21,652 bases of DNA from a virus (lineage: Duplodnaviria; Heunggongvirae; Uroviricota; Caudoviricetes). Shown piece by piece: positions 396-21,652 of this stretch. The translations under genes and the position numbers were made by a program. Numbering within the stretch: the first letter of the stretch is position 1; every line of letters begins with the position of its first letter. The DNA lies in the IMG/VR virus record IMGVR_UViG_2516143027_000011, positions 1 to 21,652 of that record, one strand, 5' to 3'. Under the pieces are notes generated by a model. That model was given only the letters and a program-made list of their open reading frames with translations. It did no database searches and had not been told where the DNA came from.

Positions 396-421
396 TCAAA
401 AAGCCGCATTATGCGCGGGCT
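396..421 (-). terminator. Putative rho-independent terminator ending the minus-strand late operon
   Basis: GC-rich imperfect hairpin (gccgcattatgcgcgggc on the plus strand) followed on the minus-strand transcript by a U5 run (plus-strand A-run 398-402), directly after the stop at 432-434. Stem has a bulge, so strength is uncertain. Confidence 0.3.
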
Positions 422-431
422 GATGGGATGA

Positions 432-5561: not shown

Positions 5562-5571
5562 AAAAACCTCC

Positions 5572-6165: not shown

Positions 6166-7336
6166 TATTCACCGTCAGTGATTTCAGACGCGGCACGCTC
6201 AGTTCACTGGTAATGTCTCCCAACGAAAATGTCAGTGATTCCGTCTGTGCAAAGGTTTTATGAATTTCCCGCCCCAGTTGCGAAAAGGAAAACCGCGAAT
6301 ATGGCCACGTCTTTCTGACGTCATAATCAGCATTTTCACGAAAGGCACAGCGGATCATGTTTTCAATGCCGGCCTTCAGCGTTTTCACCTCTTCGTCACT
6401 GAAGTTGTTCAGATTTTTGACATAAACTGTGACGGCCAGATCGTGAAGCGTTTCCGGCATGGGATAGCACTGCATATCATCACCATGCCCGTGGTGCCCC
6501 AGCGTGTTGATATAGTCATTCACCGCATCCACGAACGGCGCTGATGCCACCCCACTGTCCAGTAATAAAAAGGCGTTGGCTGTTCCTGGCCCCCTCGGTG
6601 CTTCATGCTCAAAGAAAATCCGATCGATACTCAACCCGGCAACACTGGCGATCATTGAGCGATAAACCGCATCAGTGTGGTAATTCCCCACCAGATTGAA
6701 CTGATTGCGGCAACGCTCGCGCAATTCATCATCACTTTCCTCGTCAGCCCCCGGCACTGTCAGCCAGTTTTCCTCACTGGCCACATGGCTGATACCACTG
6801 ACCGCCATCGGCAGAATGCGGTAATATCCGGGCGCAAGGTTATATGCGCCCCCGGTGCCAGTGGCTTTCACCGGCAGTAATGCGCTGGCCGCGCCGGAAG
6901 CGATCACCACATCCTCAGTGGTGGCCAGCTCATACACTCGCCCGTTAATGCGTTCTGTCTGGATAACCGTCCCGGCGTTGACCGTCACAACGGCCTTTGC
7001 ATCTTCTTTGAAGAACCGAATACCCCCCTGCGCAGCGCTCGCTGGTTTTGCCGTGACGTTCACCGCCCATGCCAGCAAACGCAACATGCTCCCGCTGGCT
7101 GTGGCCACAAACATATTGGCCAGCACGGTTAACACCAGAACGTCTTTAAGCCACATCACCGGGGCGGTCACAATGGCGGTGATTAATCGCCAGAACGGTG
7201 ACATTCGGGATGTATTGGTGATAATTCCCTCATCTGCTGCAATTGCATTGAAGCGTTCCCGCACTTCGGCCTCCGTTACCGGCATACCGCTGTCTTTCAC
7301 CACTTCTTCAAAATCAACCTGCGGTTTTTCCGTCAT
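6152..7336 (-). CDS. Baseplate J-like protein (P2 gpJ / gp47 family)
   Basis: Start set to ATG at 7336, which overlaps the upstream stop (ATGA); the track ORF start at 7390 is further upstream. Size and position between the W-like and I-like genes fit baseplate J. Confidence 0.7.
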   Translation of the reverse strand: MTEKPQVDFEEVVKDSGMPVTEAEVRERFNAIAADEGIITNTSRMSPFWRLITAIVTAPVMWLKDVLVLTVLANMFVATASGSMLRLLAWAVNVTAKPASAAQGGIRFFKEDAKAVVTVNAGTVIQTERINGRVYELATTEDVVIASGAASALLPVKATGTGGAYNLAPGYYRILPMAVSGISHVASEENWLTVPGADEESDDELRERCRNQFNLVGNYHTDAVYRSMIASVAGLSIDRIFFEHEAPRGPGTANAFLLLDSGVASAPFVDAVNDYINTLGHHGHGDDMQCYPMPETLHDLAVTVYVKNLNNFSDEEVKTLKAGIENMIRCAFRENADYDVRKTWPYSRFSFSQLGREIHKTFAQTESLTFSLGDITSELSVPRLKSLTVNIENE

Positions 7337-7662
7337 AAATCCACCTGCGCAGAGATCCCGCCAAAATCGTATGTACTCGCGGTTACCCACAACCGCTTCT
7401 GACTTTCTTCACTGATTTCCACCGTACCCGGCACAATGCGTTCATCATCTTCAATCAGTAATTCCATGCGGGTAAAAATATCCGCTCTCATTGTCGGGCT
7501 ACGTTCGGCAATTAATTCCGTCGCTAACCCACTTTCAATAATGGAATGAATAATGTCCTGCCCGATACTTTTTCGGTTATTACATAATTCAGGTTCATTA
7601 CCGGTATTCAGAACAAAGTCACCGCTCTGAATCAGCAAATCGATATAAAGAACATCACTCAT
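7333..7662 (-). CDS. Baseplate wedge protein, gpW / gp25-like (109 aa)
   Basis: Start set to ATG at 7662, which overlaps the tape measure stop (ATGA). N-terminal pattern DLLIQSGDFVLNTGNEPEL...IGQDIIHSI fits the gpW/gp25 fold; sits immediately before baseplate J as in P2. Confidence 0.55.
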   Translation of the reverse strand: MSDVLYIDLLIQSGDFVLNTGNEPELCNNRKSIGQDIIHSIIESGLATELIAERSPTMRADIFTRMELLIEDDERIVPGTVEISEESQKRLWVTASTYDFGGISAQVDL

Positions 7663-9626
7663 GCGCCAAGCTCCTGCCATTCCATAAGCTGGGATGGAGA
7701 AAGTGCTTCTTTGGTATGGAAATGCACTTCACCAATTTTCCGGCTGTTATCGGTTACGGATTTACTGTTGCTGTTGATTGTTTTGCTGATACCACCTTTA
7801 TCCACACCTTTTAAATCACCCCCCGTTGACAGTGTATTTCCGGTTAATGGCTGCGTGGTTTCACTGGCCAGTGAAATATCCACGCCGGGAATTTTATTCA
7901 GTTTCTGAACAATCCAGTTCCACGACTTAAGAAATCCCCCTTTGATTGACTTCCAGACATTATCAAACAGCGACATAATGCCGGAGGCCATCCCCTTTAA
8001 CGCCTCAGACGGTGAAAATCCTGTCAGCAAAGAAATAAAGCTGTTCCATCCTTCACTGATATATTGCCAGGCTGAAGCAAAGATCCCCGCCAGCCACTTC
8101 ACCACGGCGGCACATGTCTGGAAGGCTTCGGTATTCATCACCGCTGCTTTTATCGTGTCCCAGTGCTTAACCAGCAGATAACAACCGGCAACCAGCAGCG
8201 CAATGGCACCAATCACAAGCAGGATCGGCCAGCTCATCAGGTTGATACCAATTCCGGCCATAATTGCGGCCATGCGTACCGCCAGTAACGCACCGCGCAA
8301 AAACTTCAGCGTGGTATTCCAGGCGATTACCGCCATTTGCGCCAGCCAGACAGTGGCCGTGTAGATTTTCGTAACCGCCGTTAACGCCACCCAGATCCCG
8401 CGCAATCCCATCATGATGAATCTGGATACCCCCATCACGATATTGGCCACCGCTCCCACAGCGGCAAAGCTCAGTAATGCCATCGACGCATAACCAATCA
8501 TACGGGCAATGTTAGGAAATAACTGCATCCAGCGGGCAAAGGTCTGCCCCATATCAGCCAGGCGATTCAGAACCGGATACAGCACCGGGATCAGCGTCAG
8601 CCCGATCACGGTCTGAATGGCTTTCAGGATTTGCACAAAGCGATCCCACGGCTTGACCATTTTTTGTGCCATTTCCTGGGTACGCTTCAGGCCATCCGCG
8701 CCGCCCAGTTCGGTGATGTTCCGCTGAAGTAACGCGACATTGCCGTAAAGATGTTTAACCACTGCCGAACTGTCACCAAAGGCTGCATCCAGCTCCGTCT
8801 GGGCTTTCAGGTTCCCTTCAAGGCTTTTGCCATATTTGCCCTGCAACTTGATCAGCATTTCAGGCATGGACAGCATTTTGCCGGTGGAGTCAGTAAAGGA
8901 CAGCCCCAGCTTTTTAGCGCCATCAATCGCGCCGGTCATAAATCCTTCATAGGCGCTGCTGGCTTCCGTTCCCAGCGTCCGCTGAAGTTGCCCCAGCACG
9001 GCCAGCTGTTCATCCAGCCCCACACCGTAGTTAGTCCCGACGCCGCGCGCACCTTCCATCAAATCCTTGATAGTGGCCATTTCTGTGCCAAAGGTTTTGC
9101 GCATATAAACCATCTTGCCTGCCAGTTGCTCGGCAAACTCCACCTTGCCCAGTCTGGCGGCATCGGCGGAAAAGTTACCGAACATCTGCCCCATAAATTC
9201 CGCCGTGTCCGCCGCTGTGGACTTGAGCGCAAACGCCAGGGTATTGGCGACTTTCGTCACCTTCGGCAGTTCATTACCCGTCAGTCCGGCAATGGAAGCG
9301 TTAATATTTTCCGTGGATTTAACGAACTCCACCGCGCTGGCACCGTAGGTTGTACTGAAACGCAGGGCATCACGCTGAACGGTCTTAAGCGCGGAATCAT
9401 CAATCCCTTTTGCGGCGGCATCATTCAGCGCGTCATACATTTCAATTGCCGGTGATAATGCGCCTTTGATCGCCATCCCGACACCGGCCAGCGCCACCGC
9501 GCCGCCGCCAATCTGCATAAAGGCCGCTTTTGATTTTTCCGCAAAGCCGGTGACGTTACCCTGCACCTGTTTTAACGGGCGGGATAATTTATCAATCAGG
9601 CTCAATGTAAAATCTAATTGTTTCAT
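7659..9626 (-). CDS. Tail tape measure protein (655 aa)
   Basis: Long Ala/Gly-rich helical protein with central hydrophobic segments; directly follows the tail chaperone gene, and its ATG overlaps the stop of the chaperone frameshift extension. Confidence 0.85.
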   Translation of the reverse strand: MKQLDFTLSLIDKLSRPLKQVQGNVTGFAEKSKAAFMQIGGGAVALAGVGMAIKGALSPAIEMYDALNDAAAKGIDDSALKTVQRDALRFSTTYGASAVEFVKSTENINASIAGLTGNELPKVTKVANTLAFALKSTAADTAEFMGQMFGNFSADAARLGKVEFAEQLAGKMVYMRKTFGTEMATIKDLMEGARGVGTNYGVGLDEQLAVLGQLQRTLGTEASSAYEGFMTGAIDGAKKLGLSFTDSTGKMLSMPEMLIKLQGKYGKSLEGNLKAQTELDAAFGDSSAVVKHLYGNVALLQRNITELGGADGLKRTQEMAQKMVKPWDRFVQILKAIQTVIGLTLIPVLYPVLNRLADMGQTFARWMQLFPNIARMIGYASMALLSFAAVGAVANIVMGVSRFIMMGLRGIWVALTAVTKIYTATVWLAQMAVIAWNTTLKFLRGALLAVRMAAIMAGIGINLMSWPILLVIGAIALLVAGCYLLVKHWDTIKAAVMNTEAFQTCAAVVKWLAGIFASAWQYISEGWNSFISLLTGFSPSEALKGMASGIMSLFDNVWKSIKGGFLKSWNWIVQKLNKIPGVDISLASETTQPLTGNTLSTGGDLKGVDKGGISKTINSNSKSVTDNSRKIGEVHFHTKEALSPSQLMEWQELGA

Positions 9627-10071
9627 TCAGTGCCTTTAAATGCTTTTGCCACACCATTGGCCACGGCTATTCCGGTATATTCCCAGTGACGATTGTCCAG
9701 CCAGATAGCGGCGGCGATATCATCAACGGAATCCTGACCATACGGTAAATAATGACGGCGGAGAATTAAATATTGTTCGAGTCCATTCCTTTCAATTTCA
9801 TGGACTCGCTTTGTCAGTTTTTTACTTCAATTTCCAGTTCAGGCGCATAAATATCATTTACTTTGCCAACCAGTTGAAGCGCTGCACCCGGACGTTTTAA
9901 TACTTCTGCCAGTGCTTCTTTACTTTCCGTTGCCACAATTCGCGTCAGATAGTTATGTGCCGGGGCAACTTTATTATCCATCGCCATTTCATTAATAAAT
10001 TTGTTGTAGGCGGTCTGATTTGGCTCAAAAACAATATCAACACCACAAACACACAGTTTAATTTGTTCCAT
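9623..10071 (-). CDS. Tail assembly chaperone, -1 frameshift fusion product (P2 gpE+E' / lambda gpGT analogue, about 149 aa)
   Basis: From the heptamer at 9823-9817 the -1 frame is open for 64 codons (LTKRVHEIERNGLEQYLILRRHYLPYGQDSVDDIAAAIWLDNRHWEYTGIAVANGVAKAFKGTE). Its TGA (9625-9623) overlaps the tape measure ATG (9626-9624). The extension has no start codon of its own. Confidence 0.55.
9814..10071 (-). CDS. Tail assembly chaperone, short form (P2 gpE / lambda gpG analogue, 85 aa)
   Basis: Track start 10074 is GTG; the adjacent ATG at 10071 was used. Sits immediately upstream of the tape measure gene and ends in the slippery heptamer A_AAA_AAC. Confidence 0.6.
   Translation of the reverse strand: MEQIKLCVCGVDIVFEPNQTAYNKFINEMAMDNKVAPAHNYLTRIVATESKEALAEVLKRPGAALQLVGKVNDIYAPELEIEVKN
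9817..9823 (-). other. Programmed -1 ribosomal frameshift slippery heptamer A_AAA_AAC
   Basis: Minus-strand sequence GTA AAA AAC TGA at the 3' end of the chaperone ORF gives a canonical X_XXY_YYZ heptamer, in the position conserved in tail chaperone genes. Confidence 0.55.
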
Positions 10072-10357
10072 CACTCATACTCTCTCTTAAATTAATTTCG
10101 TCCACTAACTGATTATGACGCGCAGCACACTGCCCATAAATTTCAGGATAAATTGTCAGTAATTCCGCTGCATCTTTTCCTGTCGTACCGTTCAGGCGCG
10201 GCAGCTGCGTTGTGCATTTAGTTTTCAGGTTTTCCTGATAACGCACGTTCGGTACCAGCTGCGGCGCTGTTGTACATGCTGACAAACTCATCAGACAGAC
10301 AACGATTGGTAAAAACGGGCTTAAGTATTTCCGTGCGTATCTCTCGCGGTGCCACAT
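10058..10357 (-). CDS. Rz1-like outer-membrane spanin lipoprotein (o-spanin)
   Basis: Signal peptide with lipobox (MWHRERYARKYLSPFLPIVVCLMSLSA|C); GGAGG Shine-Dalgarno upstream of ATG at 10357; overlaps the 3' part of the Rz-like gene in a different frame. Confidence 0.55.
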   Translation of the reverse strand: MWHRERYARKYLSPFLPIVVCLMSLSACTTAPQLVPNVRYQENLKTKCTTQLPRLNGTTGKDAAELLTIYPEIYGQCAARHNQLVDEINLRESMSDGTN

Positions 10358-10556
10358 TTTTTAACGCCTCCAGTTTATCTTCCAGCGCTCTGGCCGAATC
10401 ACTGGCAATACCCTGCATTGCTTTTCGCGATTCATTACCGGCCACCTGCGCCGCTGTATTGATTGCCAGCTCTAAGCTGTCACGCCGCCAGTCAGCGGTC
10501 AGCCAGCCCCAGACAAACGCCAGCGCCACCACAACCAGCCACTGCCCGCTGCTCAT
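10218..10556 (-). CDS. Rz-like inner-membrane spanin (i-spanin)
   Basis: N-terminal transmembrane helix (WLVVVALAFVWGWL) followed by a charged helical periplasmic domain; directly downstream of the endolysin gene. Confidence 0.55.
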   Translation of the reverse strand: MSSGQWLVVVALAFVWGWLTADWRRDSLELAINTAAQVAGNESRKAMQGIASDSARALEDKLEALKNVAPREIRTEILKPVFTNRCLSDEFVSMYNSAAAGTERALSGKPEN

Positions 10557-10897
10557 CAGCGCACCCCGTTATGTTCCAGACTGAAATGATTGCCATCCGG
10601 TCTGGATTTGAAGCGTCCGCCCCAGGCACCACCCAGTGATTCCCAGTATTCCCCCAGAGGCAGATAATCTTCTGTGCGGGTTTTGTACTGACCGTTCACG
10701 AACAGATTGAAATCCACCGCCAACCGCTGGGTGTGCAGACTGTTAGAAATGCCGCTGCCTTTCTTCGCATTCAGCGCGGCCTGTTCTGGTGTACGGTAAG
10801 CCTCACCGAACGTCAGTCTGTAGCCATGTTCTTCTGCCCAGTGGATCAGACTGGCCACCATGACTGTGAATAATTGCTGTTTTTCACTCAGGGTCAT
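10556..10897 (-). CDS. Endolysin, peptidase M15-type (113 aa)
   Basis: Start set to internal ATG at 10897 (GGGAG Shine-Dalgarno; the track ORF begins at 11014 inside the holin gene). Motifs SLHTQRLAVDF and DGNHFSLEH fit the zinc-binding signature of M15 peptidases. Confidence 0.65.
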   Translation of the reverse strand: MTLSEKQQLFTVMVASLIHWAEEHGYRLTFGEAYRTPEQAALNAKKGSGISNSLHTQRLAVDFNLFVNGQYKTRTEDYLPLGEYWESLGGAWGGRFKSRPDGNHFSLEHNGVR

Positions 10898-11186
10898 TTG
10901 TCTTGCTCCCGTTCTGCTTTCCCGCTGCACGTCTGCGCAGCCACACTTCCACCGCCTGATAACCGGCAATCCCCAGCGCCGCCCCCAGCCCTTGAATGGC
11001 CAGCGGGCTGGCATCCGGGATCTGAATCAGCACCGCCCCGGCCACCACTGAAACCAGACTGCCCAGGATCACGCGACCAGCAAACAGGCGCGGCGTGATG
11101 GGGTCATTACTGGTCAGCACATTGCCGATGGCAATCAGTGCGCCAATGATCAGCAGTGAATAAAGGCTCTTTTCATGCTCCTGCAT
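10884..11186 (-). CDS. Holin (100 aa)
   Basis: Two to three predicted transmembrane helices and a highly charged C-terminus (LRRRAAGKQNGSKTNDPE); immediately upstream of and overlapping the endolysin gene; AAGGGG Shine-Dalgarno. Confidence 0.6.
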   Translation of the reverse strand: MQEHEKSLYSLLIIGALIAIGNVLTSNDPITPRLFAGRVILGSLVSVVAGAVLIQIPDASPLAIQGLGAALGIAGYQAVEVWLRRRAAGKQNGSKTNDPE

Positions 11187-11195
11187 CCCTGCCCC

Positions 11196-11651
11196 TTATC
11201 CGATCAGGTTTTCTGTGGCTTCCGCTTCCAGATACGGCACACCGTTGATGTTGACGAATTTCGGACTGGTCACGAAATATTTGATTTTGTGCGTGGTCAC
11301 ACCGCCACCTTTCGGATCAATATCCAGCAGGTTGCTGACCTGCAATTTATTGCCGAACGTCTCCACCTTCATTTCTTCGCTACTGGCTTTGGCATAGAAA
11401 AGAAAATCAAGTGGGGGAAGCCCACGCCATGAACCCGCTGCACGGGCTTTGGCTGTCAGCACCTGAAGTGTTTTTGAACTGACTTCAATTTCCCCTTCGG
11501 CGGCAACATCGCCATCCACATACCCGTCAGGGACGCCACGCGTCTGGGCGGCAGCGCTGTTATCCGTAATATCGAGCGTGATTTTCTCGATATGGATCAG
11601 ATCGCCGTCCATATAGGTGTCAAACGACATACCCGAAATACGTTTAGTCAT
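11196..11651 (-). CDS. Tail tube protein (151 aa)
   Basis: Directly downstream of the sheath-like gene with ATGA overlap; size and position fit a myovirus tube protein. Confidence 0.55.
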   Translation of the reverse strand: MTKRISGMSFDTYMDGDLIHIEKITLDITDNSAAAQTRGVPDGYVDGDVAAEGEIEVSSKTLQVLTAKARAAGSWRGLPPLDFLFYAKASSEEMKVETFGNKLQVSNLLDIDPKGGGVTTHKIKYFVTSPKFVNINGVPYLEAEATENLIG

Positions 11652-12775
11652 GCTGTGGCCTCCAGACTGGCATCCAGTAACAGACTGATGGTGATTTGCA
11701 GCGGCACTTCCCAGGTGCGTACCACAATGTAAATATCCACCGCCTTTTTGTTCTTCCAGACAATGGTCACATCACCATCCTGCGGCGGCTTCACCTCACC
11801 CGGAAATGACACACCGTTAATGCTGGCCGCAGTGGACATTTCACGCAGTGGACGGGCAAACAGTGTCTGATTTGCGGCGATACTTCCCGGCGTACTGTTC
11901 AGCGAGCGATCCGCGATTTTGCTGATAGCCAGCAGACGAACACGGCGGGCAGCTTTATCCGCAACGCGCAGGGTTTCAATCGACTGGTAATCGCCGCCCT
12001 CAACATCCAGCGTGCGGCCATCTGCCCAGTAAAAACCGTCATAATCCGGGTACCACATCGGCACACTGAAACGCTGTGCTTCAAGCGCCTTAAGTGTGGC
12101 CAGTTCCAGCACTTCCCCGGTACCATCAACCGGCATTTCATCACTGCCAAGATTCATCAGAGCACCGGTTTTAACCCGCGCCGGACTGTCAGCAATGGTT
12201 ACCGCACGGCTACACAGGCGACCAGCCAGCACACCCGGTTCATTTCCCCACAGGCGGGGAACCAGCTGCACCGCCTTTTCTGCAATGCCATCCTGAAGGG
12301 TGGCCATGCGTACCAGATAATCCGCCTGGGCTTCTTCGTCCTGCATTCCCTGTGCGGCCAGAATGAACCACACCCAGCGGCCATACTTTGAAATCAGGGT
12401 GGATCGTAACGTCACGGCCTGATTTACCTGCGCTTTAGCGGTCACATCGTCAGACAGCACCACGCCTTCCACAGAGCACACCACCTGCGCGGCCAGAACC
12501 GCTTTCACCCAGGCATCTGCCTCCGCGTCAGTTGGCAGGACATGAATGAACCCCCACCAGTTCTGGCCAGCGTTCGCCAGCGCAGCCAGAACATCATTTT
12601 TCAGCGGGCTGGCTTCCTCGCCCAGCAGTGAATCAAAATCACTCTGGGCATTCACCGCCAGCGTTTTCCCCACATTTTTGGTACCCGAACCGATAAACAG
12701 CAGCGTGCGTTCCACTTCATTGGTTTCACCCAGCAGCTGATTTACCTGGTTTACGGTCACAATTGGCCAGGTCAT
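11648..12775 (-). CDS. Tail sheath protein (375 aa)
   Basis: Position (after the completion proteins, before the tube) and size fit a contractile sheath; ATGA overlap with the upstream gene. Assigned from synteny, not from a recognised motif. Confidence 0.5.
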   Translation of the reverse strand: MTWPIVTVNQVNQLLGETNEVERTLLFIGSGTKNVGKTLAVNAQSDFDSLLGEEASPLKNDVLAALANAGQNWWGFIHVLPTDAEADAWVKAVLAAQVVCSVEGVVLSDDVTAKAQVNQAVTLRSTLISKYGRWVWFILAAQGMQDEEAQADYLVRMATLQDGIAEKAVQLVPRLWGNEPGVLAGRLCSRAVTIADSPARVKTGALMNLGSDEMPVDGTGEVLELATLKALEAQRFSVPMWYPDYDGFYWADGRTLDVEGGDYQSIETLRVADKAARRVRLLAISKIADRSLNSTPGSIAANQTLFARPLREMSTAASINGVSFPGEVKPPQDGDVTIVWKNKKAVDIYIVVRTWEVPLQITISLLLDASLEATA

Positions 12776-13479
12776 GCTTTCCCCTTAATATCCTGCGCTT
12801 TAACGTCCCAGCCAAAGCCGATGGCCTGAAGCTGACGCGCCAGCGCCTTGTCAAATTCATCATCATTCATGCCCAGAAACACACGGGCAGGAAGATCCAC
12901 TTTCCAGCTGGTTTTCACGGCTTTACCACTGAGTTTTCGAATCAGCAGCCCCGCCTGGCTGTACGGCATCGTTTTGGTGATCCCGCCCAGTGTGGGCTTT
13001 TTCCATCGCTTACCGGTTTTCACCCGGTACCCCAGCGCCCGTAATTTTTTGGCCTGGGCAGGTGTCGCCATTTTCCCTGCCTCCGCCTTCCGTGGCTGAT
13101 TACTGCGGCTGACTTTCACGCGCATTCCGTTTTGTTGCGCGTAACCCACTGTTCCGGCTGGTACCGGCGTTTCCCCGTTTCGGTATCCGCCGCCCTGCAA
13201 ATAGATCCGCACAGCCTGAATTTCTGGCATTTCACGGATATGCAGCAGCTTTGGCAGGTTGCGCAGCATCTTCCCTTTGCGTTTTGTCTTACGTCCCGAC
13301 CACTTCTGGCCATCCGGGGATTCCTGATTGCGCACATGCCGTTTTGCCGCAGCAATCACGCCATATTTGGCCAGACGCCATATCAGACGCTGCCGTTTTC
13401 TCGGCGGCAGCTCCATGCTGGCCAGTGCCTTGCGCAATTCGGCCAGCTGTTTTTTATTCAGCTCGCCACTGGCAATCAT
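12772..13479 (-). CDS. Phage virion morphogenesis / tail completion protein (P2 gpS / Mu gpG-like)
   Basis: Basic protein at the gpS position (after the R-like gene, before the sheath); ATGA overlaps on both sides. Confidence 0.5.
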   Translation of the reverse strand: MIASGELNKKQLAELRKALASMELPPRKRQRLIWRLAKYGVIAAAKRHVRNQESPDGQKWSGRKTKRKGKMLRNLPKLLHIREMPEIQAVRIYLQGGGYRNGETPVPAGTVGYAQQNGMRVKVSRSNQPRKAEAGKMATPAQAKKLRALGYRVKTGKRWKKPTLGGITKTMPYSQAGLLIRKLSGKAVKTSWKVDLPARVFLGMNDDEFDKALARQLQAIGFGWDVKAQDIKGKA

Positions 13480-13982
13480 TCGCCATCCCCCACCGGCGCA
13501 CCGGCCTCATCCACGCTGTAAATACTGGCGGTCAGTGCCGTCCAGATTTCAGGCTCAACCAGTGACCAGCGCTCACCCCGCCACGGGATAGCCCCGTTTT
13601 CGTCCTGCCTGATCACCAGTTCTTCCACCATCGGAACAGTCAGCACCACTGTGGCCACTTCCTCATCCTCCACCGACACATCCCAGTCCGGTTCGGCTTC
13701 ATTCAGCCCCACTTCATCCAGTAGTTCCCTGTCAGCATCATCCAGCCACGCCGCCAGTAAGGACATAAGCAACTGCGGCGGGCACAGGCGATACGGGAAA
13801 CGCTCCCAGCTCAGAACCGCGTCATACCTGATCACCGCCTGGCGATATTGTCCCAGCCCGTAATCTTTCGCCGCAGGAATGAACTTCATCTCATCCAGTA
13901 CACTGTCAAATGACTTCATCGCGCGGGGCGGGACGTTCTCTTTAAAAAATGCGGTCAGGCTCTGGATCTGCGTCTGGCTCAT
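13476..13982 (-). CDS. Putative tail completion / head-tail joining protein (P2 gpR-like by position)
   Basis: 168-aa ORF between the head-completion and S-like genes, ATGA-coupled to both neighbours. Assignment is by synteny only. Confidence 0.4.
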   Translation of the reverse strand: MSQTQIQSLTAFFKENVPPRAMKSFDSVLDEMKFIPAAKDYGLGQYRQAVIRYDAVLSWERFPYRLCPPQLLMSLLAAWLDDADRELLDEVGLNEAEPDWDVSVEDEEVATVVLTVPMVEELVIRQDENGAIPWRGERWSLVEPEIWTALTASIYSVDEAGAPVGDGE

Positions 13983-14431
13983 ACTTTTTTCACCGTTGCC
14001 CGTTTCAGCCCTTTCATACGGCGGATAACCACTGACGCTTCAGCCAGTAACCCGGCACGGGTTTCCATGCTTTCCTGTCCCGGATGGGTATCACGCCGCC
14101 CGATCGTGGCAAACTCCCCCAGCAGATCCGCTTTTGCCCTGGCAAAAACGGCCTTCATATACTGGGCGCACAGGCTGTTCAGTCCGCCCATTTTTACGCC
14201 CGGTACCTCTGCCGCCAGCGTGTGGCCTTTCGCTATCCAGCTGGCCTCCACGTTTTCCAGTTCCGCATTCACCTCCGCCACCGCTGCAAGCAACGCCTGG
14301 CTGATGGTGTCAGCGTCAATATCTGGCGGTAGTGACCGCTGCGCCTGAAAATCCTTCAGATTCAGATCTGGCCAGAATCCGTTATTGGTCAGCGGTTCAT
14401 CCTGATAATCCAGCGGCTTTCCGCTAAACAT
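13979..14431 (-). CDS. Head completion/stabilisation protein (P2 gpL-like, about 150 aa)
   Basis: Track start 14482 is GTG; reset to ATG at 14431 with GGGGGA Shine-Dalgarno. Position after the small terminase, as in P2. Confidence 0.55.
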   Translation of the reverse strand: MFSGKPLDYQDEPLTNNGFWPDLNLKDFQAQRSLPPDIDADTISQALLAAVAEVNAELENVEASWIAKGHTLAAEVPGVKMGGLNSLCAQYMKAVFARAKADLLGEFATIGRRDTHPGQESMETRAGLLAEASVVIRRMKGLKRATVKKV

Positions 14432-14529
14432 AAATCCCCCGAAAAAGGCGGACTGGCCGGTTTCCACGGCGCAGTTACACACAAGGCGTTCTGCCCTCCA
14501 CCGCGTCCGCCTGGCTTGCGGTAGTCTTT

Positions 14530-14691
14530 TTAGTGCTCAGTATTAAAAGTGTGCGTATGTGCGCCTGCGTTATGGTTATATGCACTCACACTATGGGTAT
14601 GTGCCCCCACAGAATGGGTATGTGAGCCTGCGCTATGGTTATATGCACTCACACTATGGGTATGTGCACCTTGTAAATGGCTTTCTTTCAT
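14530..14691 (-). CDS. Small His-rich repeat peptide (53 aa: [53 protein letters not shown]), not in the ORF track
   Basis: ATG at 14691-14689 with AAGGA Shine-Dalgarno about 9 nt upstream, same strand as the surrounding operon, stop TAA at 14532-14530. Fills the otherwise unexplained 266-bp gap between the small-terminase and head-completion genes. Shares the AHTHSVS motif and short nucleotide stretches with the tail fibre C-terminus. Confidence 0.45.
   Translation of the reverse strand: MKESHLQGAHTHSVSAYNHSAGSHTHSVGAHTHSVSAYNHNAGAHTHTFNTEH
14555..14667. repeat. 63-bp tandem direct repeat, two copies with about 50 bp near-identical per unit
   Basis: gtatgtgcgcctgcgttatggttatatgcactcacactatgggtatgtgc (14555-14604) and gtatgtgagcctgcgctatggttatatgcactcacactatgggtatgtgc (14618-14667); period 63 bp = 21 codons. 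Confidence 0.85.
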
Positions 14692-14697
14692 TTGTTG

Positions 14698-15402
14698 TTA
14701 TCCTTGAGTTGTCAGTTTTCGGATACGGGCGGCAATTGTCTGCCGCGCCGTTCTGACGCCAATTTTTGAGTAGTGTTTTTCTGCAATAGCCAGCAGCTGA
14801 TCGGCTTTTTCCAGCGTTTTAATATCATCCACGCCCGCCGCCGTTTTCTGCCCATCGTCATTGCGTAGCAACTCCAGACCGGCAAACTTGAACCATTTGG
14901 CCGTCACCTGCTCATGCAGTCGCCAGGTGTTTGCCACCCGCTCAAACGTGCGGGTGAAATAAGGCTCAACACTTTCCCCGCGCCCTGCGGTTTCCTGCGC
15001 CCATTCCAGCATCGTATCCGCCACAAACGTGGGGAAATTGCTGCGCAACCGATCCGGGGTTGCCTGCTGCTGACTGATTGCAATGTCAGCCCAGTCCAGC
15101 GCCTTATCCAGATCGCCCACGTCAAACAGCCAGATAACACACCAGGCGAAAACCGGATTTGCATACACCTGGCCACTATCCAGATAGGCTTCCACAGTGG
15201 GAACCCAGCGCGGCAACAGCACATCACGTTTATACTCGACGCGATCGGCAATGGTAGGCAGACTTCGAACATGTTCCACATCCGTTTCCAGCGCCCTGAT
15301 CAGCAGGTGCATACTTTCCGTGGTTTCCAGTGCCTGGCTGCGCTTCAGCTTTTGTTCCATTGCAATACGCTGACTGTGACGCTGTGCGGGGGAAAGTGCC
15401 AT
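14698..15402 (-). CDS. Terminase small (endonuclease) subunit, P2 gpM-like
   Basis: ATG at 15402 with GGAGG Shine-Dalgarno, 3 nt after the capsid stop; position between capsid and head completion genes as in P2; size close to gpM. Confidence 0.6.
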   Translation of the reverse strand: MALSPAQRHSQRIAMEQKLKRSQALETTESMHLLIRALETDVEHVRSLPTIADRVEYKRDVLLPRWVPTVEAYLDSGQVYANPVFAWCVIWLFDVGDLDKALDWADIAISQQQATPDRLRSNFPTFVADTMLEWAQETAGRGESVEPYFTRTFERVANTWRLHEQVTAKWFKFAGLELLRNDDGQKTAAGVDDIKTLEKADQLLAIAEKHYSKIGVRTARQTIAARIRKLTTQG

Positions 15403-15405
15403 TTA

Positions 15406-16428
15406 TCAGCCCTCCACCGGTTCGGAGACTTTGCCGATTGTCACAGCGGATTCATCAATGGCTGCATACAGCTCCGGCACTTCCACCGCGTAACCTTCAT
15501 TGCGCAGGTATTTGTTTTCGAACTGCTTACGATCTTCAACAAACTCCGCCTTACGCATACGGGTATTGCGCTGGGTGTAGATGTGCAGGTTAGAAAGTGG
15601 CGTAACCACCATGCGTTTACCCGGCATAAACGGCGGGATAATGGCCTGACGGCCAGCAATGGTGCTCCCCAGCATCTGCGCAGCAATTTTTTCAGTCGGA
15701 CGGTCTGCTGCCTGATACAGTCGGTACTGTTCAGCAGCGACCAGATCGGCACCGACCAGGACAACCAGACGCGGGTCATTGCGGAACTGTGCCGGGATTT
15801 TGGCGTTAATCAGATCGGACGCCATTGCATCCAGTGACTTGTAATCCCCGGCCTCATCGAGCACCACTGGATCGGTCATAATCTGATTGCCGTCCAGCAG
15901 CGTTTTCATACGCTCATGCCAGCCAATGTTCACATCTTCACCGTTCGGGTTTGCCTCCGGATCAGTGGTTTTAGCCCGACTTTTACCATTGAAACCAATG
16001 CGCAACATGTCCAGCGCAAAAGCCTGCGTGGTGAATGCCTGTACCAGGTTGTAAAACTCGTTTTCGTCCTTACCGGCGTTTGCCCAGACAGAAAGCAGAT
16101 CCCAGCGCAGTGCGGCGCAGCTGTCTGTTTCAACCAGCGAATAGTCATTACCGTCAACGCCTACCTGACGAATAAAACGGCCATTTTCGCTGCGGCCGGT
16201 ATGCAGCACGGAAGAACCGACAGAGATCACCTGACCACTCAACTGGTCAACATCCAGACAGGTGATCATGTTCAGGAACTCGACGGACTCCAGCAACGCA
16301 AGACGCAGCGCATTTTCCTGCGGGTCATTCAGGGAAAAATATCGACTGGTATCACGCGCACCAAACTGCTGCGCCATCCCCGCCGAATATTTATCCAGTA
16401 AATCCCGCGCACGATTATTAAGGTGCAT
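15406..16428 (-). CDS. Major capsid protein, P2 gpN-like (340 aa)
   Basis: Track start 16443 is TTG; reset to ATG at 16428 with GAGGGAG Shine-Dalgarno. Recognisable similarity to P2 gpN (GFNG, GDY.SLDA and LSIY segments). Confidence 0.8.
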   Translation of the reverse strand: MHLNNRARDLLDKYSAGMAQQFGARDTSRYFSLNDPQENALRLALLESVEFLNMITCLDVDQLSGQVISVGSSVLHTGRSENGRFIRQVGVDGNDYSLVETDSCAALRWDLLSVWANAGKDENEFYNLVQAFTTQAFALDMLRIGFNGKSRAKTTDPEANPNGEDVNIGWHERMKTLLDGNQIMTDPVVLDEAGDYKSLDAMASDLINAKIPAQFRNDPRLVVLVGADLVAAEQYRLYQAADRPTEKIAAQMLGSTIAGRQAIIPPFMPGKRMVVTPLSNLHIYTQRNTRMRKAEFVEDRKQFENKYLRNEGYAVEVPELYAAIDESAVTIGKVSEPVEG

Positions 16429-16490
16429 AAAACTCCCTCGCAATTAAGCGATTTAACAATATGTTCTGGACTAATCAGCAATAAAGCGAA

Positions 16491-17294
16491 TTACAGGAAA
16501 TTAAATTTCCCGGCTTTATCTTTAATAGTACGCCCCGGTGTACGGGTGTTTTTATTACCCAGATCGTTAAAACGGGTTACGATTTCTTTTGCATTATCGC
16601 GAATTGCCGCAAATTCCTGCGTATCGACCACTTCAGCGATAGTATCAACATCACCCTGAACGTCATTCAGTTGAGTTTCAATTTTCGCCACACGCGCTTC
16701 CAGATCGTTCACCACATTGGCAAGCGCCTGTAATTTATCTTCATCCGGGGCAGGATTATCCTGCGGCGTTTCATCTTCAAACTTTGGCTTAATACCAAAC
16801 AGTTTCTGCCAGTTCTTCATTCTTGCTTCCTGTTTAATTTTTCCGTCACGGGAAATTACACAGCTGTAATATCCCTGCTTTGTTAATTTATTGCGCCGAC
16901 TACTAAAGCGCAGCCGTGTGGTGCCAACGCTAGCAGGCGTATCTGTTACCGCCAGCCCTTTCAGGTAAGTACGTCCGCTACCGCGCCAGTTTTCATCCGG
17001 CTCAATGGAGAAAAACAAAAGCTGATCTTCATGGTTGGCGAAAATCAGCCGCATATTCGGGCAAAGGCTGACATATAAACGCGCTAGTCCATCGTCACCA
17101 TCTTTCCAGGTGGCTTCCAGAACTTCGCCAAAATTACCGGAATCGTCCTCATGCTCTGGCCAGATTAATGCAACGTAATGGTTATAATCATAGGTTTCCC
17201 CCATATCTATAATCCACTGCCGTTCAATTACTCTGCCGTCAACGGTATCCCCTTCAGTAGCAACACACAGCCAGTCAGTTTTTAAATGTGACAT
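16491..17294 (-). CDS. Capsid scaffolding protein, P2 gpO-like (267 aa)
   Basis: Track start 17330 is TTG; reset to ATG at 17294 with GGGGG Shine-Dalgarno. N-terminus GDTVDGRVIERQWIIDMGETYD aligns with P2 gpO (GDTCDGRVISAQDIQEMAETFD); LKGLAVTDTPAS matches gpO LVGLAVTDDPAS. Confidence 0.8.
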   Translation of the reverse strand: MSHLKTDWLCVATEGDTVDGRVIERQWIIDMGETYDYNHYVALIWPEHEDDSGNFGEVLEATWKDGDDGLARLYVSLCPNMRLIFANHEDQLLFFSIEPDENWRGSGRTYLKGLAVTDTPASVGTTRLRFSSRRNKLTKQGYYSCVISRDGKIKQEARMKNWQKLFGIKPKFEDETPQDNPAPDEDKLQALANVVNDLEARVAKIETQLNDVQGDVDTIAEVVDTQEFAAIRDNAKEIVTRFNDLGNKNTRTPGRTIKDKAGKFNFL

Positions 17295-17376
17295 ATCCCC
17301 CCTGTTCCACTCCCTGACGCTGCAATTCAATTATTGCCAAATAAAACAGCCACTGCATTACGCTTTATTCTGAACA

Positions 17377-17401
17377 GTTCGGTTATAACGCTTTACCGAA
17401 C
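17377..17401. promoter_or_regulatory. Inverted repeat GTTCGGT-N11-ACCGAAC in the divergent scaffold/terminase intergenic region; candidate late-activator site
   Basis: Perfect 7-bp arms separated by 11 bp, centred about 67 bp upstream of the terminase ATG, with a CATAAT -10-like hexamer at 17443-17448. Not an exact match to the P2 TGT-N12-ACA element as I recall it. Confidence 0.3.
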
Positions 17402-17455
17402 AGACACGAATTAACACCACCGTTTTTTCATCACAGCCACGGCATAATTATCCGC

Positions 17456-18979
17456 ATGGCTAAATACTCTGAAGAATTAAAAGGCGTTGTTCGCGCACTT
17501 TATCTGCGCCGCTATACGCCAAAGGAAATCGCATCTGAATTAAATCTGCCGAATGCGCGGATCGTTTACTACTGGGCGGAGAAATACAGCTGGGCGGATT
17601 TGCTCAGTTTTGAAAGCACAGAGGAAGCGATTGAACGCCGTTACCAGCTGCTGGCCAGCCGCGATAACAAAACCGATCTCGACCTGAAAGAAATGGACAT
17701 GCTCATTGCTCATGCCACGAAACTGCGTGCGCAGAGTAATAAACACAAAGAGAAAATGGTCAGCGGTCAGAGTTCCGGGCAAGCAGCTGCGCGGGACAAC
17801 AATGACGACGAACCGCGCAGCAAACGGAAATACAAGAAAAACGATATTACCTCGCTGACGCAGGAGGACTTTGACGCATGGGCGGAGGAACATCTTTTTG
17901 AATATCAGAAACACCTGCGTAATAACATTGGCCAGCTTGTCAGGAACATCCTGAAAAGCCGCCAGATCGGTGCGACCTGGTATTTTGCGTTTGAAGCGTT
18001 TGAAAACGCGGTGATGACCGGCGATCCGCAAATCTTTCTGTCCGCGTCAAAGGCGCAGGCTGAAGTGTTCCGGTCTTACATCGTGAATATTGCAGAGCAG
18101 TATTTCGGTATTACGCTGACCGGCAACCCGATCCGCTTAAGCAACGGCGCAGAACTGCGTTTTCTCTCCACCAACAAAAACACCGCTCAGTCCTACAGTG
18201 GCCACCTGTACTGTGACGAATATTTCTGGGTGCCAAACTTTGCAAAACTTAACGAAGTGGCCAGCGCAATGGCCACACATGACAAGTGGCGCACCACCTA
18301 TTTTTCAACACCATCGGCAAAAACGCACCAGGCTTACCCGTTCTGGACTGGCGATGAGTGGAAACAGGGCAGTAAAAAACGTGCGGCCATTAAGTTTCCG
18401 TCCTTTAACGAAATGCGTGACGGCGGGCGACTCTGCCCGGATGGGCAATGGCGCTACGTCATTACGATGGAAGATGCCATTGCGGGCGGTTTCAACCTGG
18501 CGAACATCGAGAAACTGCGCAACCGCTACAACGACGCCACTTTTAACATGCTCTATATGTGCGTGTTCGTTGACAGCAAAGATTCCGTTTTCAGCTTTTC
18601 CGACCTGGAAGCCTGCGGCGTTGAAATCGACACCTGGCAGGATCACAACCCTGATGCAGCGCGGCCATTCGGTGACAGGCCAGTGTGGGGCGGCTTTGAC
18701 CCGGCTCGCAGCGGTGATTTGTCCTGTTTTGTCATCATCGCCCCGCCGATGTTCGTCGTGGAGAAGTTCCGCGTTCTGAAGGTGATTTACTGGAAAGGCA
18801 TGAACTTCCGATACCAGGCAAAACAGATCGAGCAGTTGTTCAAAAAATACAACTTCACTTATCTGGGGGTGGACGTTACCGGCATTGGCCAGGGTGTTTT
18901 TGACAACATTCAGCATTTTGCCATGCGCGTGGCCGTCCCTATTCGTTACGACCTAAACACCAAAATAAGCTGGTATTGA
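17456..18979 (+). CDS. Terminase large (ATPase) subunit, P2 gpP-like; reading frame ends prematurely at 507 aa
   Basis: Divergent from the scaffold gene across a 162-bp intergenic region, as in P2 (P/O). The C-terminal part continues in the -1 frame (next feature); the two pieces together are about the length of P2 gpP (about 590 aa, from memory). Confidence 0.7.
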   Translation: MAKYSEELKGVVRALYLRRYTPKEIASELNLPNARIVYYWAEKYSWADLLSFESTEEAIERRYQLLASRDNKTDLDLKEMDMLIAHATKLRAQSNKHKEKMVSGQSSGQAAARDNNDDEPRSKRKYKKNDITSLTQEDFDAWAEEHLFEYQKHLRNNIGQLVRNILKSRQIGATWYFAFEAFENAVMTGDPQIFLSASKAQAEVFRSYIVNIAEQYFGITLTGNPIRLSNGAELRFLSTNKNTAQSYSGHLYCDEYFWVPNFAKLNEVASAMATHDKWRTTYFSTPSAKTHQAYPFWTGDEWKQGSKKRAAIKFPSFNEMRDGGRLCPDGQWRYVITMEDAIAGGFNLANIEKLRNRYNDATFNMLYMCVFVDSKDSVFSFSDLEACGVEIDTWQDHNPDAARPFGDRPVWGGFDPARSGDLSCFVIIAPPMFVVEKFRVLKVIYWKGMNFRYQAKQIEQLFKKYNFTYLGVDVTGIGQGVFDNIQHFAMRVAVPIRYDLNTKISWY

Positions 18980-19230
18980 AAGCGGTGGACGTGGTGGAAA
19001 GCCAGCGTATTGAGTGGGATAAAAACCTGAAAGAGATCGCGGCCAGCTTTATGTCTGTGCGCCGAACCACCACACAAAGCGGCAATGCTATGACGTTTGT
19101 CGCTGACCGTAGCCAGGATACCGGCCACGCGGAGGCGTTCTGGGCGATTACCCACGGTCTGCATAACGAACCCCTTAACTATGAAAACAAACCTAAATCC
19201 CGCTGGGGTGTAAGGAAAGAGGCAGCATGA
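18904..19230 (+). CDS. Terminase large subunit C-terminal segment in -1 frame (frameshifted continuation; pseudogene or sequencing error)
   Basis: This frame is open from 18904 and overlaps the end of the upstream terminase ORF. It encodes ...LVLKAVDVVESQRIEWDKNLKEIAASF...ADRSQDTGHAEAFWAITHGL.... Its TGA overlaps the portal ATG (ATGA at 19227-19230). An A4 run at 18962-18965 is the likely indel site. Confidence 0.5.
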   Translation, partial: QHSAFCHARGRPYSLRPKHQNKLVLKAVDVVESQRIEWDKNLKEIAASFMSVRRTTTQSGNAMTFVADRSQDTGHAEAFWAITHGLHNEPLNYENKPKSRWGVRKEAA

Positions 19231-20288
19231 GTAAAAAGAAACGCTTTGTTAAGCGCGACCAGCGCGGCGACAAATCAAAAAAGATGAGCATTATCACATT
19301 CGGCAAACCTGAACCGGTTCTGACTACCGGCACAGATTACCGTGATATCTGGTACGACAATGCCGCCGATCACTTCACCCAGCCGATTGACCGGCTGGCA
19401 CTCGCACAACTGATTAATCTTAACGGTCAGCACGGCGGCATCATTCACGCCCGTAAAAACATGATTGTTTCAGACTATCAGGGGGGCGGGCTTATTCACG
19501 ACCAGCTGGAAGCGGCAGCGTTTGACTATATAACCTTTGGGGATATTGCGATTGCCAAAATTCGTAACGGCTGGGGCGACGTGATCGCACTTGAACCCTT
19601 GCCCGGTCTGTATATTCGCCGCCGCAAAGTCAGAGATAACGCCCAGGATAAACCCGGTGACTACGTGGTGTTACAGGAAGGGGAACCGCAGGTATGGCCA
19701 GAAGAAGATATTATCTTTATCAAAATGTATGACCCGCAACAGCATATCTACGGACTGCCGGACTACATCGGCGGTGTGCATTCCGCGTTACTTAACAGTG
19801 AAGCGGTCATTTTCCGACGCCGCTATTACCACAACGGTGCGCACACAGGCGGTATTCTTTATACCCGCGATCCCAGTATGACGGATGAAATGGAAGAAGA
19901 AATTGAACAGCAGCTGCGTGACAGCAAAGGTATCGGTAACTTCTCCACTATTCTGGTGAACATACCTGGCGGGGATGGGGATGCAATCAAGTTCATCGAA
20001 ATGGGGGATATTTCTGCAAAAGATGAATTTGCCAATATCAAAAACATCAGCGCCCAGGACATTCTGAACGCGCACCGTTTCCCTGCTGGCCTCGCCGGTA
20101 TTGTCCCGCAGAACACTGCCGGACTGGGGGATGTTGAAAAGGCTGAACGCATTTACAAGAAAAGCGAAATAGCCCCCATCCAGCGCCGTTTCATGCTGGC
20201 CGTTAACGGCGATCCCGAAATACCGAAAAGGCTACACCTTAACTTTGATTTAAGTTACACAGAATCAACGGATAAGGGTGCGGCATGA
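19227..20288 (+). CDS. Portal protein, P2 gpQ-like (353 aa)
   Basis: Strong AAGGAAAGAGG Shine-Dalgarno; follows the terminase as in P2 (P then Q); size matches gpQ. Confidence 0.7.
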   Translation: MSKKKRFVKRDQRGDKSKKMSIITFGKPEPVLTTGTDYRDIWYDNAADHFTQPIDRLALAQLINLNGQHGGIIHARKNMIVSDYQGGGLIHDQLEAAAFDYITFGDIAIAKIRNGWGDVIALEPLPGLYIRRRKVRDNAQDKPGDYVVLQEGEPQVWPEEDIIFIKMYDPQQHIYGLPDYIGGVHSALLNSEAVIFRRRYYHNGAHTGGILYTRDPSMTDEMEEEIEQQLRDSKGIGNFSTILVNIPGGDGDAIKFIEMGDISAKDEFANIKNISAQDILNAHRFPAGLAGIVPQNTAGLGDVEKAERIYKKSEIAPIQRRFMLAVNGDPEIPKRLHLNFDLSYTESTDKGAA

Positions 20289-20338
20289 GGCGAAACAGGC
20301 TAAAATCCAGGCATCATTTAACAGCTGGAGCATGGAAT

Positions 20339-20602
20339 ATGCGAGTTCTGAAAATCGAATGCCCGGAATGCGGCTCAAAGGCTGTTATTCGTAAAACGAA
20401 CAGGAAGCACCGGCAGATTGCGGATATTTACTGCGCCTGTTCAGATGTTGAGTGTGGCCATACGTTTGTTATGAATCTGACGTTCTCCCACACTCTCAGC
20501 CCCAGCGCGAAAACGGGTGATGCGATGGTGCAGATTCTACTTAACAGCCTGTCACCTTCTCAAAAACAGATGGCACTTGATTTACTGAGTAATGCTTCTT
20601 AA
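20339..20602 (+). CDS. Ogr/Delta-family zinc-finger late transcription activator (about 87 aa)
   Basis: CPECG...YCACSDVECGHTF matches the Ogr/Delta C-x2-C...C-x4-C motif (P2 Ogr: CPLCQ...YHQCQNVNCSATF). GGAG Shine-Dalgarno 8 nt upstream of ATG at 20339. An alternative start at 20285 would overlap the portal stop (ATGA). Confidence 0.65.
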   Translation: MRVLKIECPECGSKAVIRKTNRKHRQIADIYCACSDVECGHTFVMNLTFSHTLSPSAKTGDAMVQILLNSLSPSQKQMALDLLSNAS

Positions 20603-21330
20603 TCAGAATCTAATTTGGCTTTTGCTCTAATTGTTTCGATAAATTTCAATGAATCATGATTACCAAAAGCCTCTTTTTTATATGCTAGAATGATATCAGT
20701 GATTAGTTCTAAATTTCTGGCATCATCACTAAATAATGTATTAAAAGCGATATCATGTGTATAGGCATCAGGCAGGCCGTCAAGCAAGCGCCAATCCTCA
20801 ACAGGTAAATGTTCCAAAAAGGCATAACGCTCAAGCATTTTTTTATAATATGCATATGAAGATACTTTGTCTGCATGAGCAACATTTATCACTAACAGAA
20901 TCAATACTTCAAAGCTCAGAAAAGATCGAATAATACTTGTATAATATTTTCTCTTCTTATATTTAAAATCCAAAAAAGAACTTTTATCAATAAGCTTTAA
21001 TAAATGATACAACACTCTAAAGTAACTACTAAAAAACATATCCTTTTCATGCATTCGATTATTGGCTTCGCATAGAGAAAGCTCACCATGTCCGCCTCCA
21101 CCGGCTAAAACGTATGAAAATTGTGTTGAAAAATCAGAATTATTTTTTAACACATTTAGTTGTTCATTGTGTTGGGCAAGCAACAAAGAGAAATTTGAAT
21201 CAAAACGCTCCGCACGGCGATTAAAAAAAGATAACATCAAAGCAACAATGACAGAAAGAACTGTCCCTAAAGCAACAAAAAACTGTACTGCAAATTGATT
21301 ATCTTTCGCAAAATCATTCAAAGCAGACAT
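20599..21330 (-). CDS. AT-rich membrane-anchored protein of unknown function (about 243 aa); candidate accessory or defence cargo
   Basis: Base composition is markedly AT-rich compared with the phage genes. N-terminal transmembrane helix (FAVQFFVALGTVLSVIVALMLSFF) and a possible second hydrophobic segment. Convergent with the ogr-like gene, with overlapping stops. Start uncertain (21330, 21357 or 21390). Confidence 0.5.
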   Translation of the reverse strand: MSALNDFAKDNQFAVQFFVALGTVLSVIVALMLSFFNRRAERFDSNFSLLLAQHNEQLNVLKNNSDFSTQFSYVLAGGGGHGELSLCEANNRMHEKDMFFSSYFRVLYHLLKLIDKSSFLDFKYKKRKYYTSIIRSFLSFEVLILLVINVAHADKVSSYAYYKKMLERYAFLEHLPVEDWRLLDGLPDAYTHDIAFNTLFSDDARNLELITDIILAYKKEAFGNHDSLKFIETIRAKAKLDSD

Positions 21331-21445
21331 ATTAGACCTTCGCCGTTTAACTGTCATTCCATATTGCGAGCTAGCAATAATGTTGAGCATTTGTTTGGGG
21401 ACAGGGATTTTAATCCCCTAGCAGCATTTGTACAATTGGTATAAA

Positions 21446-21652
21446 TCAAACACGCTTTTGAAGTACGTCTCTACTAAGACTATCATGATTATCTAAAGTC
21501 TCCTTACGTATCAGGATTCGTAGGTCCTCTGTAATTTCGCCAATCCATTGTAAGGCCACCCTTTTTTCTTTCGATGAAGCCTCATCAATATTGGAAATTT
21601 TTGCCAGTAACTCAATACGTTCCAGCCCTGCTGACACCTCCAACAAATCCAT
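21446..21652 (-). CDS. Hypothetical protein, 3' end only (gene probably continues beyond the window edge); AT-rich
   Basis: Minus-strand ORF with stop at 21446 and open to the window edge; same strand and composition as the adjacent AT-rich gene, so possibly one operon. Confidence 0.35.
   Translation of the reverse strand: MDLLEVSAGLERIELLAKISNIDEASSKEKRVALQWIGEITEDLRILIRKETLDNHDSLSRDVLQKRV

Follow-up and report, generated by a model that had tools for sequence, protein, structure and literature searches.

The large terminase subunit (TerL) of phage P2, gpP, is an intact protein of 590 aa, the gene of which stands in the order O<- ->P-Q; that is, it is divergent from O and followed by Q, and the stop codon of P overlaps the start of Q. 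A closer comparison is offered by the phage records ESSI2_ev129, ev040 and ev015 (Peduoviridae, Quadragintavirus) and by E. coli prophages of matching type, which are inserted between mntR and mntS. These relatives share 97.6-99.9% nucleotide identity with the locus described here over the TerL gene. The three phage records carry intact TerL genes of 1776 nt, and in these relatives the gene is an uninterrupted ORF of this length, with a divergent gpO scaffold gene upstream, then a portal gene reached through an ATGA overlap, and then an Ogr/Delta zinc-finger gene. ESSI-2-related temperate coliphages have been isolated from infant gut viromes by Mathieu et al. (PMC6969025), and the names of the ESSI2_ev records match phages of that study. 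With regard to catalysis, it has been reported for the TerL of Thermus phage G20c, a RuvC-like two-metal nuclease, that the catalytic metals are bound by D294, D347 and D429, none of which can be dispensed with, that Asp429 in particular takes part in the coordination of metal A and is indispensable for cleavage, and that H427 and D428 mutants are impaired as well (PMC5389553). In addition, a conserved C-terminal arm of TerL has been suggested to contact the portal in phage D6E (PMC5727402).

We analyzed the corresponding locus in a stretch of viral DNA of 21,652 nucleotides (IMG/VR record IMGVR_UViG_2516143027_000011; hereafter, the window). The gene order O<- ->P Q is the same in the window as in P2, and the three genes that surround TerL in the ESSI-2-like relatives are found here in the same arrangement. 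A gpO-like capsid scaffold gene of 267 aa (16491..17294, minus strand), assigned from the Pfam family Phage_GPO, the annotation of relatives and the P2 map, is divergent from TerL, and a gpQ-like portal gene of 353 aa (19227..20288, plus strand), assigned from the ORF list and the Pfam family Phage_portal, follows it. Between these genes, however, the window has two ORFs and an A4 run, whereas the relatives have a single ORF and A5. The first ORF (17456..18979, plus strand; ORF list, Pfam and tblastn) encodes 507 aa with the C-terminal end ...PIRYDLNTKISWY*. It consists of the authentic residues 1-503, four out-of-frame residues (ISWY) and a TGA, and it includes the gpP-like N-terminal domain, the ATPase domain and approximately the first 60% of the nuclease domain; in a tblastn comparison, the TerL of strain TK3887 covered residues 1-503 at 99% identity. 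The frame that lies at -1 relative to this ORF has a TGA at 18901-18903, is open from 18904, and ends with a TGA at 19228-19230 that overlaps the portal ATG at 19227 as ATGA, so both frames are simultaneously open over 18904-18979. The homopolymer run at 18962..18965 (plus strand), where alignments with relatives place the lesion, is A4, one A short. The second piece of TerL, in the -1 frame, runs from 18964 to 19230 (plus strand; ORF list, Pfam, an alignment of 12 TerL proteins and mapping onto G20c) and consists of the authentic Asn504-Ala591 and the TGA; the ORF list calls an 84-aa ORF within it (18976..19230, plus strand) with TTG as its start codon. The overlap between TerL and the portal gene and the gene order are the same in the relatives. 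The preliminary description of this DNA had recognized a gpP-like large terminase ORF with a stop after 507 aa and a -1 frame, open from 18904, whose TGA overlaps the portal ATG, and the ORF list confirms all of these coordinates.

The domain composition further indicates that the two ORFs belong together. In the 507-aa product, Pfam recognized Terminase_5 at residues 13-63, Terminase_6N (the ATPase) at 164-385 with E=1e-53, and Terminase_6C (the RNase H-like nuclease), of which only profile positions 1-87 of 155 were matched. The 84-aa product alone matched Terminase_6C at positions 101-154 (E=4.3e-7), and an intact 591-aa relative matched positions 1-154 in a single stretch. Given that the two pieces share a domain that is continuous in the relative, the resemblance of the 84-aa piece to a terminase is not due to chance. 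The C-terminus in the -1 frame had already been described as terminase-like, and it proved to be so both by this domain match and by the relatives, which run continuously into the same portal overlap. After repair, the protein shows 42% identity to P2 gpP over residues 15-575 (E=2e-150) and shares its three Pfam domains, although P2 belongs to a different genus and has Asp at the position of Glu560 (HAD vs HAE). Of the features of a gpP-type TerL, the three-domain architecture, the colinearity with P2 gpP and the synteny are all present, and the single frame of ~590 aa is absent. The 507-aa ORF and the -1 frame together make up one P2-family large terminase (gpP-like TerL), of which each encodes a piece.

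To place the junction, the preliminary description had proposed an alignment with gpP homologues, and it had named the A4 run at 18962-18965 as the site where one A was to be restored. We examined this run in 29 complete E. coli genomes, 10 phage records, 21 gene-neighbourhood loci and seven IMG/VR contigs, and it was A5 or A6 in every relative. Megablast with positions 17400-19300 as the query matched 10 phage records and 46 E. coli chromosomes, and the full-length matches, among those listed, were all one base longer than the query. When a 96-nt query centred on the run was used, 29 complete E. coli genomes matched, all annotated as terminase, and the matched span in each of them was again one base longer than in the query (97 vs 96, or 95 vs 94). 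Near-identical prophage copies were fetched through an exact-sequence look-up of the proteins that neighbour TerL in the window. Among 20 fetched loci, the run was A5 (ACC AAA AAT) or, in the four with an ACA Thr codon, A6 (ACA AAA AAT); A4 occurred in none, and the gap at the A run was the sole indel in the gene. A metagenome scaffold from ENA (L021) and the seven IMG/VR contigs have A5 as well. In a pairwise alignment, the nearest RefSeq copy (isolate AHB29) differed from the gene by two substitutions and one gap; the gap corresponds to an extra A in the run, and the translation of the AHB29 copy is an uninterrupted protein of 591 aa that contains ...YDLNTKNKLVLKAVDVVES.... Restoration of the A in the window likewise gives ...YDLNTKNKLVLKAVDVVES... 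and a length of 591 aa, and the resulting protein has the same sequence as in several public copies. All close relatives examined encode an uninterrupted 591-aa TerL, except for one locus (L012), from an error-ridden assembly, in which the gene is broken by extra single bases. The junction is therefore where it had been predicted, with homologues continuous across it, and the predicted continuous protein of about 590 aa is matched by that of AHB29; the size of P2 gpP, which had been given as about 590 aa, is indeed 590 aa.

Taken with the synteny, these comparisons make it very probable that the locus is a single gpP-type TerL gene from whose A5 run one A has been lost, in an element of the P2 family (Peduoviridae) that is ESSI-2/Quadragintavirus-like. 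The loss would change ACC AAA AAT to ACC AAA AT, and because of the missing A, ribosomes would read four wrong codons and then meet the stop at 18977-18979. The portal ATG would then lie 248 nt past the point of termination, and its ATGA coupling to the TerL stop codon would be removed as well. The 507-aa product would probably be misfolded or misdocked and would be unable to cut concatemers at cos, and the element would be unable to package its own DNA.

Next, we asked what the truncation removes from the nuclease. A phmmer search with TerL against the PDB gave no match, and a shallow profile gave only non-significant matches. We also aligned 12 diverse TerL proteins of the Peduoviridae type, including P2 gpP, with identities down to 37%. 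All 12 are continuous across the junction, and Lys503, the codon of which lies inside the A run, is invariant among them. The profile built from these proteins matched the nuclease of G20c TerL (5M1F, 5M1Q and 5TGE) at a modest E=8e-4, and this alignment covers profile positions 447-571 and thus spans the junction, although G20c TerL is distant and its sequence similarity is weak. In the alignment, residues D95, H175 and D177 of the G20c chain (that is, D347, H427 and D429) correspond to Asp473, His558 and Glu560, respectively; D95 and D177 are 82 residues apart, as are D347 and D429, which confirms a numbering offset of 252. Asp473 lies in the context GVDVTG, and His558 and Glu560 lie in GHAE, which is GHAD in P2. 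Among the 12 TerL proteins, His558 is invariant and position 560 is always Asp or Glu. The residue equivalent to D294, which is outside the aligned stretch of G20c, is putatively Asp415 in the motif GGFDPA.

On this mapping, the 507-aa product keeps two of the three predicted metal-binding carboxylates of the nuclease, Asp415 and Asp473, both encoded in the first piece, and loses the last 88 residues, which include His558, Glu560, Thr540, Gly543, Thr547, Arg552 and the C-terminal tail. The second piece carries the invariant Thr540, Gly543, Thr547, Arg552 and His558 together with the conserved acid Glu560. The intact protein was also modelled with AlphaFold2, for which the input alignment was shallow (sequences of at least 78% identity), but the mean pLDDT was 40.8 and the model was not used; the position of the break in the fold therefore rests on the sequence-profile alignment (E=8e-4). 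This alignment indicates that the split cuts the RNase H-like nuclease domain and separates its catalytic residues. It follows that a protein of 507 aa would be expected to be incapable of cleaving cos, and the phage would consequently be unable to mature or package its own DNA; this expectation is strengthened by the fact that one of the catalytic carboxylates of the nuclease lies in the segment that is lost.

We also considered whether the two frames could represent a functional arrangement. The preliminary description had noted that its reading would be overturned by homologues that end naturally at residue 507 and are followed by an independent, conserved small gene. Apart from the ORF map, nothing favours such a small gene, and the homologues point the other way. 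When the repaired protein was compared by tblastn with 50,697 phage records, 490 matched, of which 480 cover at least 80% of the protein at one place, and the best 120 protein clusters in a collection of 5.8 billion proteins have lengths of 583-639 aa with the three domains in all. No homologue that ends naturally near residue 507 was found among the 490 phage records, the best 120 clusters or the 12 aligned TerL proteins. An extra terminase-related gene between gpP and gpQ does exist in some Peduoviridae, and we examined the extra 'terminase' ORFs of Yersinia phage vB_YenM_56.17 and Aeromonas phage phiO18P as a possible parallel. However, they encode copies of the ATPase domain (254-257 aa) downstream of a full-length TerL, and such paralogues are not comparable to the arrangement in the window. 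Because the 84-aa ORF is a plain continuation of the Terminase_6C domain and no homologue ends near residue 507, we rejected an independent small gene, the probability of which we regard as negligible. Production of full-length TerL from the A4 template by programmed -1 frameshifting or transcriptional slippage would agree with the direction of the required shift, which is -1, and with the two frames being open over the same interval. However, there is no in-frame X XXY YYZ heptamer in the overlap, nor a canonical one anywhere in 18880-18975; the site itself reads C AAA ATA, at which tRNAs that slip by -1 would have to pair with CAA and AAT. With only four A residues, the run is also well below the lengths known to support slippage by RNA polymerase. 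Furthermore, the two-frame arrangement occurs in no close relative examined (the single-base insertions of L012 lie elsewhere in the gene), so nothing appears to have been selected for recoding, and the sequence downstream of the site does not differ from that of relatives in which the gene is intact. Given the lack of both a heptamer and conservation, we rejected recoding as well and consider it very improbable.

Similarly, translation could stop at 18977-18979 and restart at the TTG at 18976 (TATTGA, 18974-18979), so that an 84-aa peptide (residues 508-591) complements the 507-aa protein. The TTGA stop-start overlap is indeed present, and the codon at 18976 is CTG rather than TTG in most relatives, which would be consistent with a C-to-T change that compensates for the lesion by creating a restart. 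This change lies 11 nt past the A run and is apparently private when compared with the 20 fetched loci. However, the same T occurs in L021, in which the run is A5 and the gene is intact, and the T is therefore an older synonymous Leu polymorphism and not a compensatory change. In addition, the break lies inside the RNase H-like domain and separates catalytic residues, there is no well-spaced Shine-Dalgarno sequence, and no relative is arranged in this way. A two-piece enzyme of this kind is thus very unlikely, and we give an equally small probability to the broader proposal that A4 is real and TerL is active as a 507-aa piece and a reinitiated 84-aa piece, or, in a variant of it, that the element is a helper-dependent P2-like prophage devoid of TerL. 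If the two-piece reading were true, it would represent a naturally split TerL. What is seen at this locus is an ordinary lesion or sequencing miscall and not a new kind of gene arrangement, and a frameshifted or miscalled prophage terminase is a well-known, everyday situation.

The preferred reading, a single gene that is one A short, introduces the question of when and how the base was lost. When window positions 1-19625 were aligned with L021, we found 0 mismatches and 1 gap, which is the A in question. The copies L008 and L015 (GCA_019148895.1) differ from window positions 12491-21652 at only four positions, and over 15228-21652 they differ only in the missing A and in the synonymous C/T at 18976. 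Besides TerL, the window has 28 phage genes, all of full length, with no frame-breaking gaps in comparison with strain TK3887, and a comparison with two relatives revealed no further frame-breaking indel in the 21.6-kb window. By these alignments, the missing A is the single private difference in 21.6 kb. Exact-pattern scans with two patterns did not find the A4 version in 185,579 species-representative (GTDB) genomes, nor did scans of IMG/VR and JGI metagenome contigs, in which the A5 version is present in seven IMG/VR contigs; a short-query BLAST against complete E. coli genomes did not find the A4 allele either, and an exact look-up in an index of 153 billion genes had neither truncated protein on record. 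No decay is seen downstream of the lesion, and given that there are zero further differences from L021, the lesion, if real, would be very young. By these comparisons, it has no evolutionary depth.

The origin is thus either a very recent, real deletion or a miscall of the homopolymer length, and every other origin is improbable; the sequence alone cannot separate the two, and the preliminary description, which had left open a pseudogene or a sequencing error, was right to do so, because the allele is private. We give about even chances to the possibility that the A is missing through an assembly or sequencing miscall, in which case the run in the organism is A5, TerL is an intact protein of 591 aa and the prophage is potentially fully functional. 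A one-base deletion in a homopolymer is a typical residual error of long-read consensus sequences, and the window has no other private difference, the remainder being free of mismatches to L021 over 19.6 kb and otherwise identical to L015. There is no downstream decay, and the allele is absent from every collection searched. Moreover, near-identical prophages in other assemblies show error-like single-base indels in the same operon: in L009 (CP164195.1), a G6 run is G5 in the portal gene and no portal gene was called, and L012 (JBFOAN010000001.1) has three extra bases in TerL. However, A5 is a short run, at which errors are rare in short-read assemblies, and there is no other homopolymer indel or frameshift in 21.6 kb and therefore no sign of a generally error-prone assembly. 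Only a little below even, in our estimation, is the chance that the deletion is real and very recent, in which case the prophage would be newly defective in DNA maturation and packaging, and either cryptic or transmissible only when a co-resident phage of the P2 family provides a compatible TerL. Replication slippage ordinarily gives rise to frameshifts in short A runs, and the lytic genes of a prophage are not under purifying selection in a lysogen. That every other gene in the window is intact is also what would be expected of a first inactivating event. However, one public copy matches the sequence in everything but an indel, with zero substitutions, and the allele is found in no independent assembly.

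For annotation, both origins lead to the same treatment: the two ORFs ought to be joined and marked as a single terminase gene with a frameshift, rather than listed as a short terminase and a hypothetical protein. If the deletion is real, then a prophage that is otherwise intact across the window has only recently become unable to cut and package its DNA, which would provide a snapshot of the first step in prophage domestication and would bear on predictions of phage release by the strain. If it is an artefact, then it illustrates how false pseudogenes arise from indels of a single base in homopolymers. Our knowledge of terminases is unchanged by either outcome.

The window also contains, for comparison, a site that carries a canonical signal for -1 recoding. 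The tail chaperone gene (10071..9814, minus strand) ends in ...GTA AAA AAC TGA, with the canonical heptamer A AAA AAC at 9823-9817, and a shift into the -1 frame gives a fusion of 149 aa, the TGA of which overlaps the ATG of the tape-measure gene. This arrangement is the E/E+E' pattern of P2. The P2 E/E+E' and lambda G/GT chaperones resemble the TerL site in that there are two overlapping frames, the downstream one of which ends in an ATGA overlap. In contrast to the TerL site, which has no heptamer and a two-frame arrangement unique to the window, the chaperone frameshift of the window has a canonical one, and A AAA AAC is a genuine programmed -1 site in the same stretch of DNA.

Single-base indels in the packaging operon, which encodes the large terminase (TerL) and the portal protein, were also seen in other public assemblies of the same prophage type. 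In the near-identical prophage of CP164195.1, a run of six G residues in the portal gene, corresponding to window position 19486, has been shortened to five, and no portal gene is called. In that of JBFOAN010000001.1, the TerL gene carries three single-base insertions, at positions equivalent to window 18275, 18665 and 18931, and no TerL gene is called; this pattern looks like consensus error.

In some Peduoviridae, the gene for a full-length TerL is translationally coupled to a downstream paralogue of its ATPase domain alone (254-257 aa), which lies between the gpP and gpQ genes, as in Yersinia phage vB_YenM_56.17 (positions 2016-2780 of locus L037) and Aeromonas phage phiO18P (2106-2879 of L038). 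The paralogue shows 35% identity to TerL residues 144-369 and retains the Walker A motif KSRQIGA, but its Walker B region reads GEY rather than DEY.

Immediately 3' of the portal gene, the window carries a gene for a 105-aa Ogr/Delta-like zinc-finger protein (20285-20602, plus strand; Pfam E=9e-20), the start codon of which overlaps the portal stop codon. In P2, by contrast, the sequence directly after Q is a rho-independent terminator, beyond which lies the cos end. In the phage group to which the window belongs, the P-Q packaging operon and the late activator appear to share a transcript. Between this gene and a 68-aa gene lies a putative abortive-infection gene (20599-21390, minus strand; Pfam putAbiC, E=3e-12), whose product is 243-263 aa long depending on the start codon chosen. 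TK3887, GCA_019148895.1 and some further copies carry it; AHB29, LH13-b and phage ESSI2_ev129 lack it, and in these the Ogr gene adjoins the 68-aa gene. The position beside the packaging operon seems to be a variable slot for cargo or defence genes. An AIPR-domain gene was also observed in the metagenome scaffold L021, just past the left end of the window.

The surroundings of the head genes are mosaic, at 16491-17330 (minus strand) and at 14530-14697. The gpO scaffold protein of the window is only 79.5% identical to that of TK3887, whereas the flanking genes are 97-100% identical; other copies have a scaffold gene 100% identical to the window's. Between the genes for the small terminase and for head completion, the segment 14530-14697 has been swapped out in some relatives, and in some copies it contains a 53- or 61-aa ORF.

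The tail assembly chaperone gene (9814-10071, minus strand; 85 aa) has the 3' end GTA AAA AAC TGA, which includes A AAA AAC (9817-9823, minus strand), a canonical slippery heptamer for -1 frameshifting. An extension in the -1 frame (9623-9817, minus strand) gives a 149-aa fusion, the TGA of which overlaps the tape-measure ATG (9626). This two-frame pair looks like the conserved chaperone frameshift of the P2 E/E+E' type. The extension appears in the RefSeq annotation of relatives as a separate 'DUF6890' gene, and the division into two genes looks like a mis-annotation.
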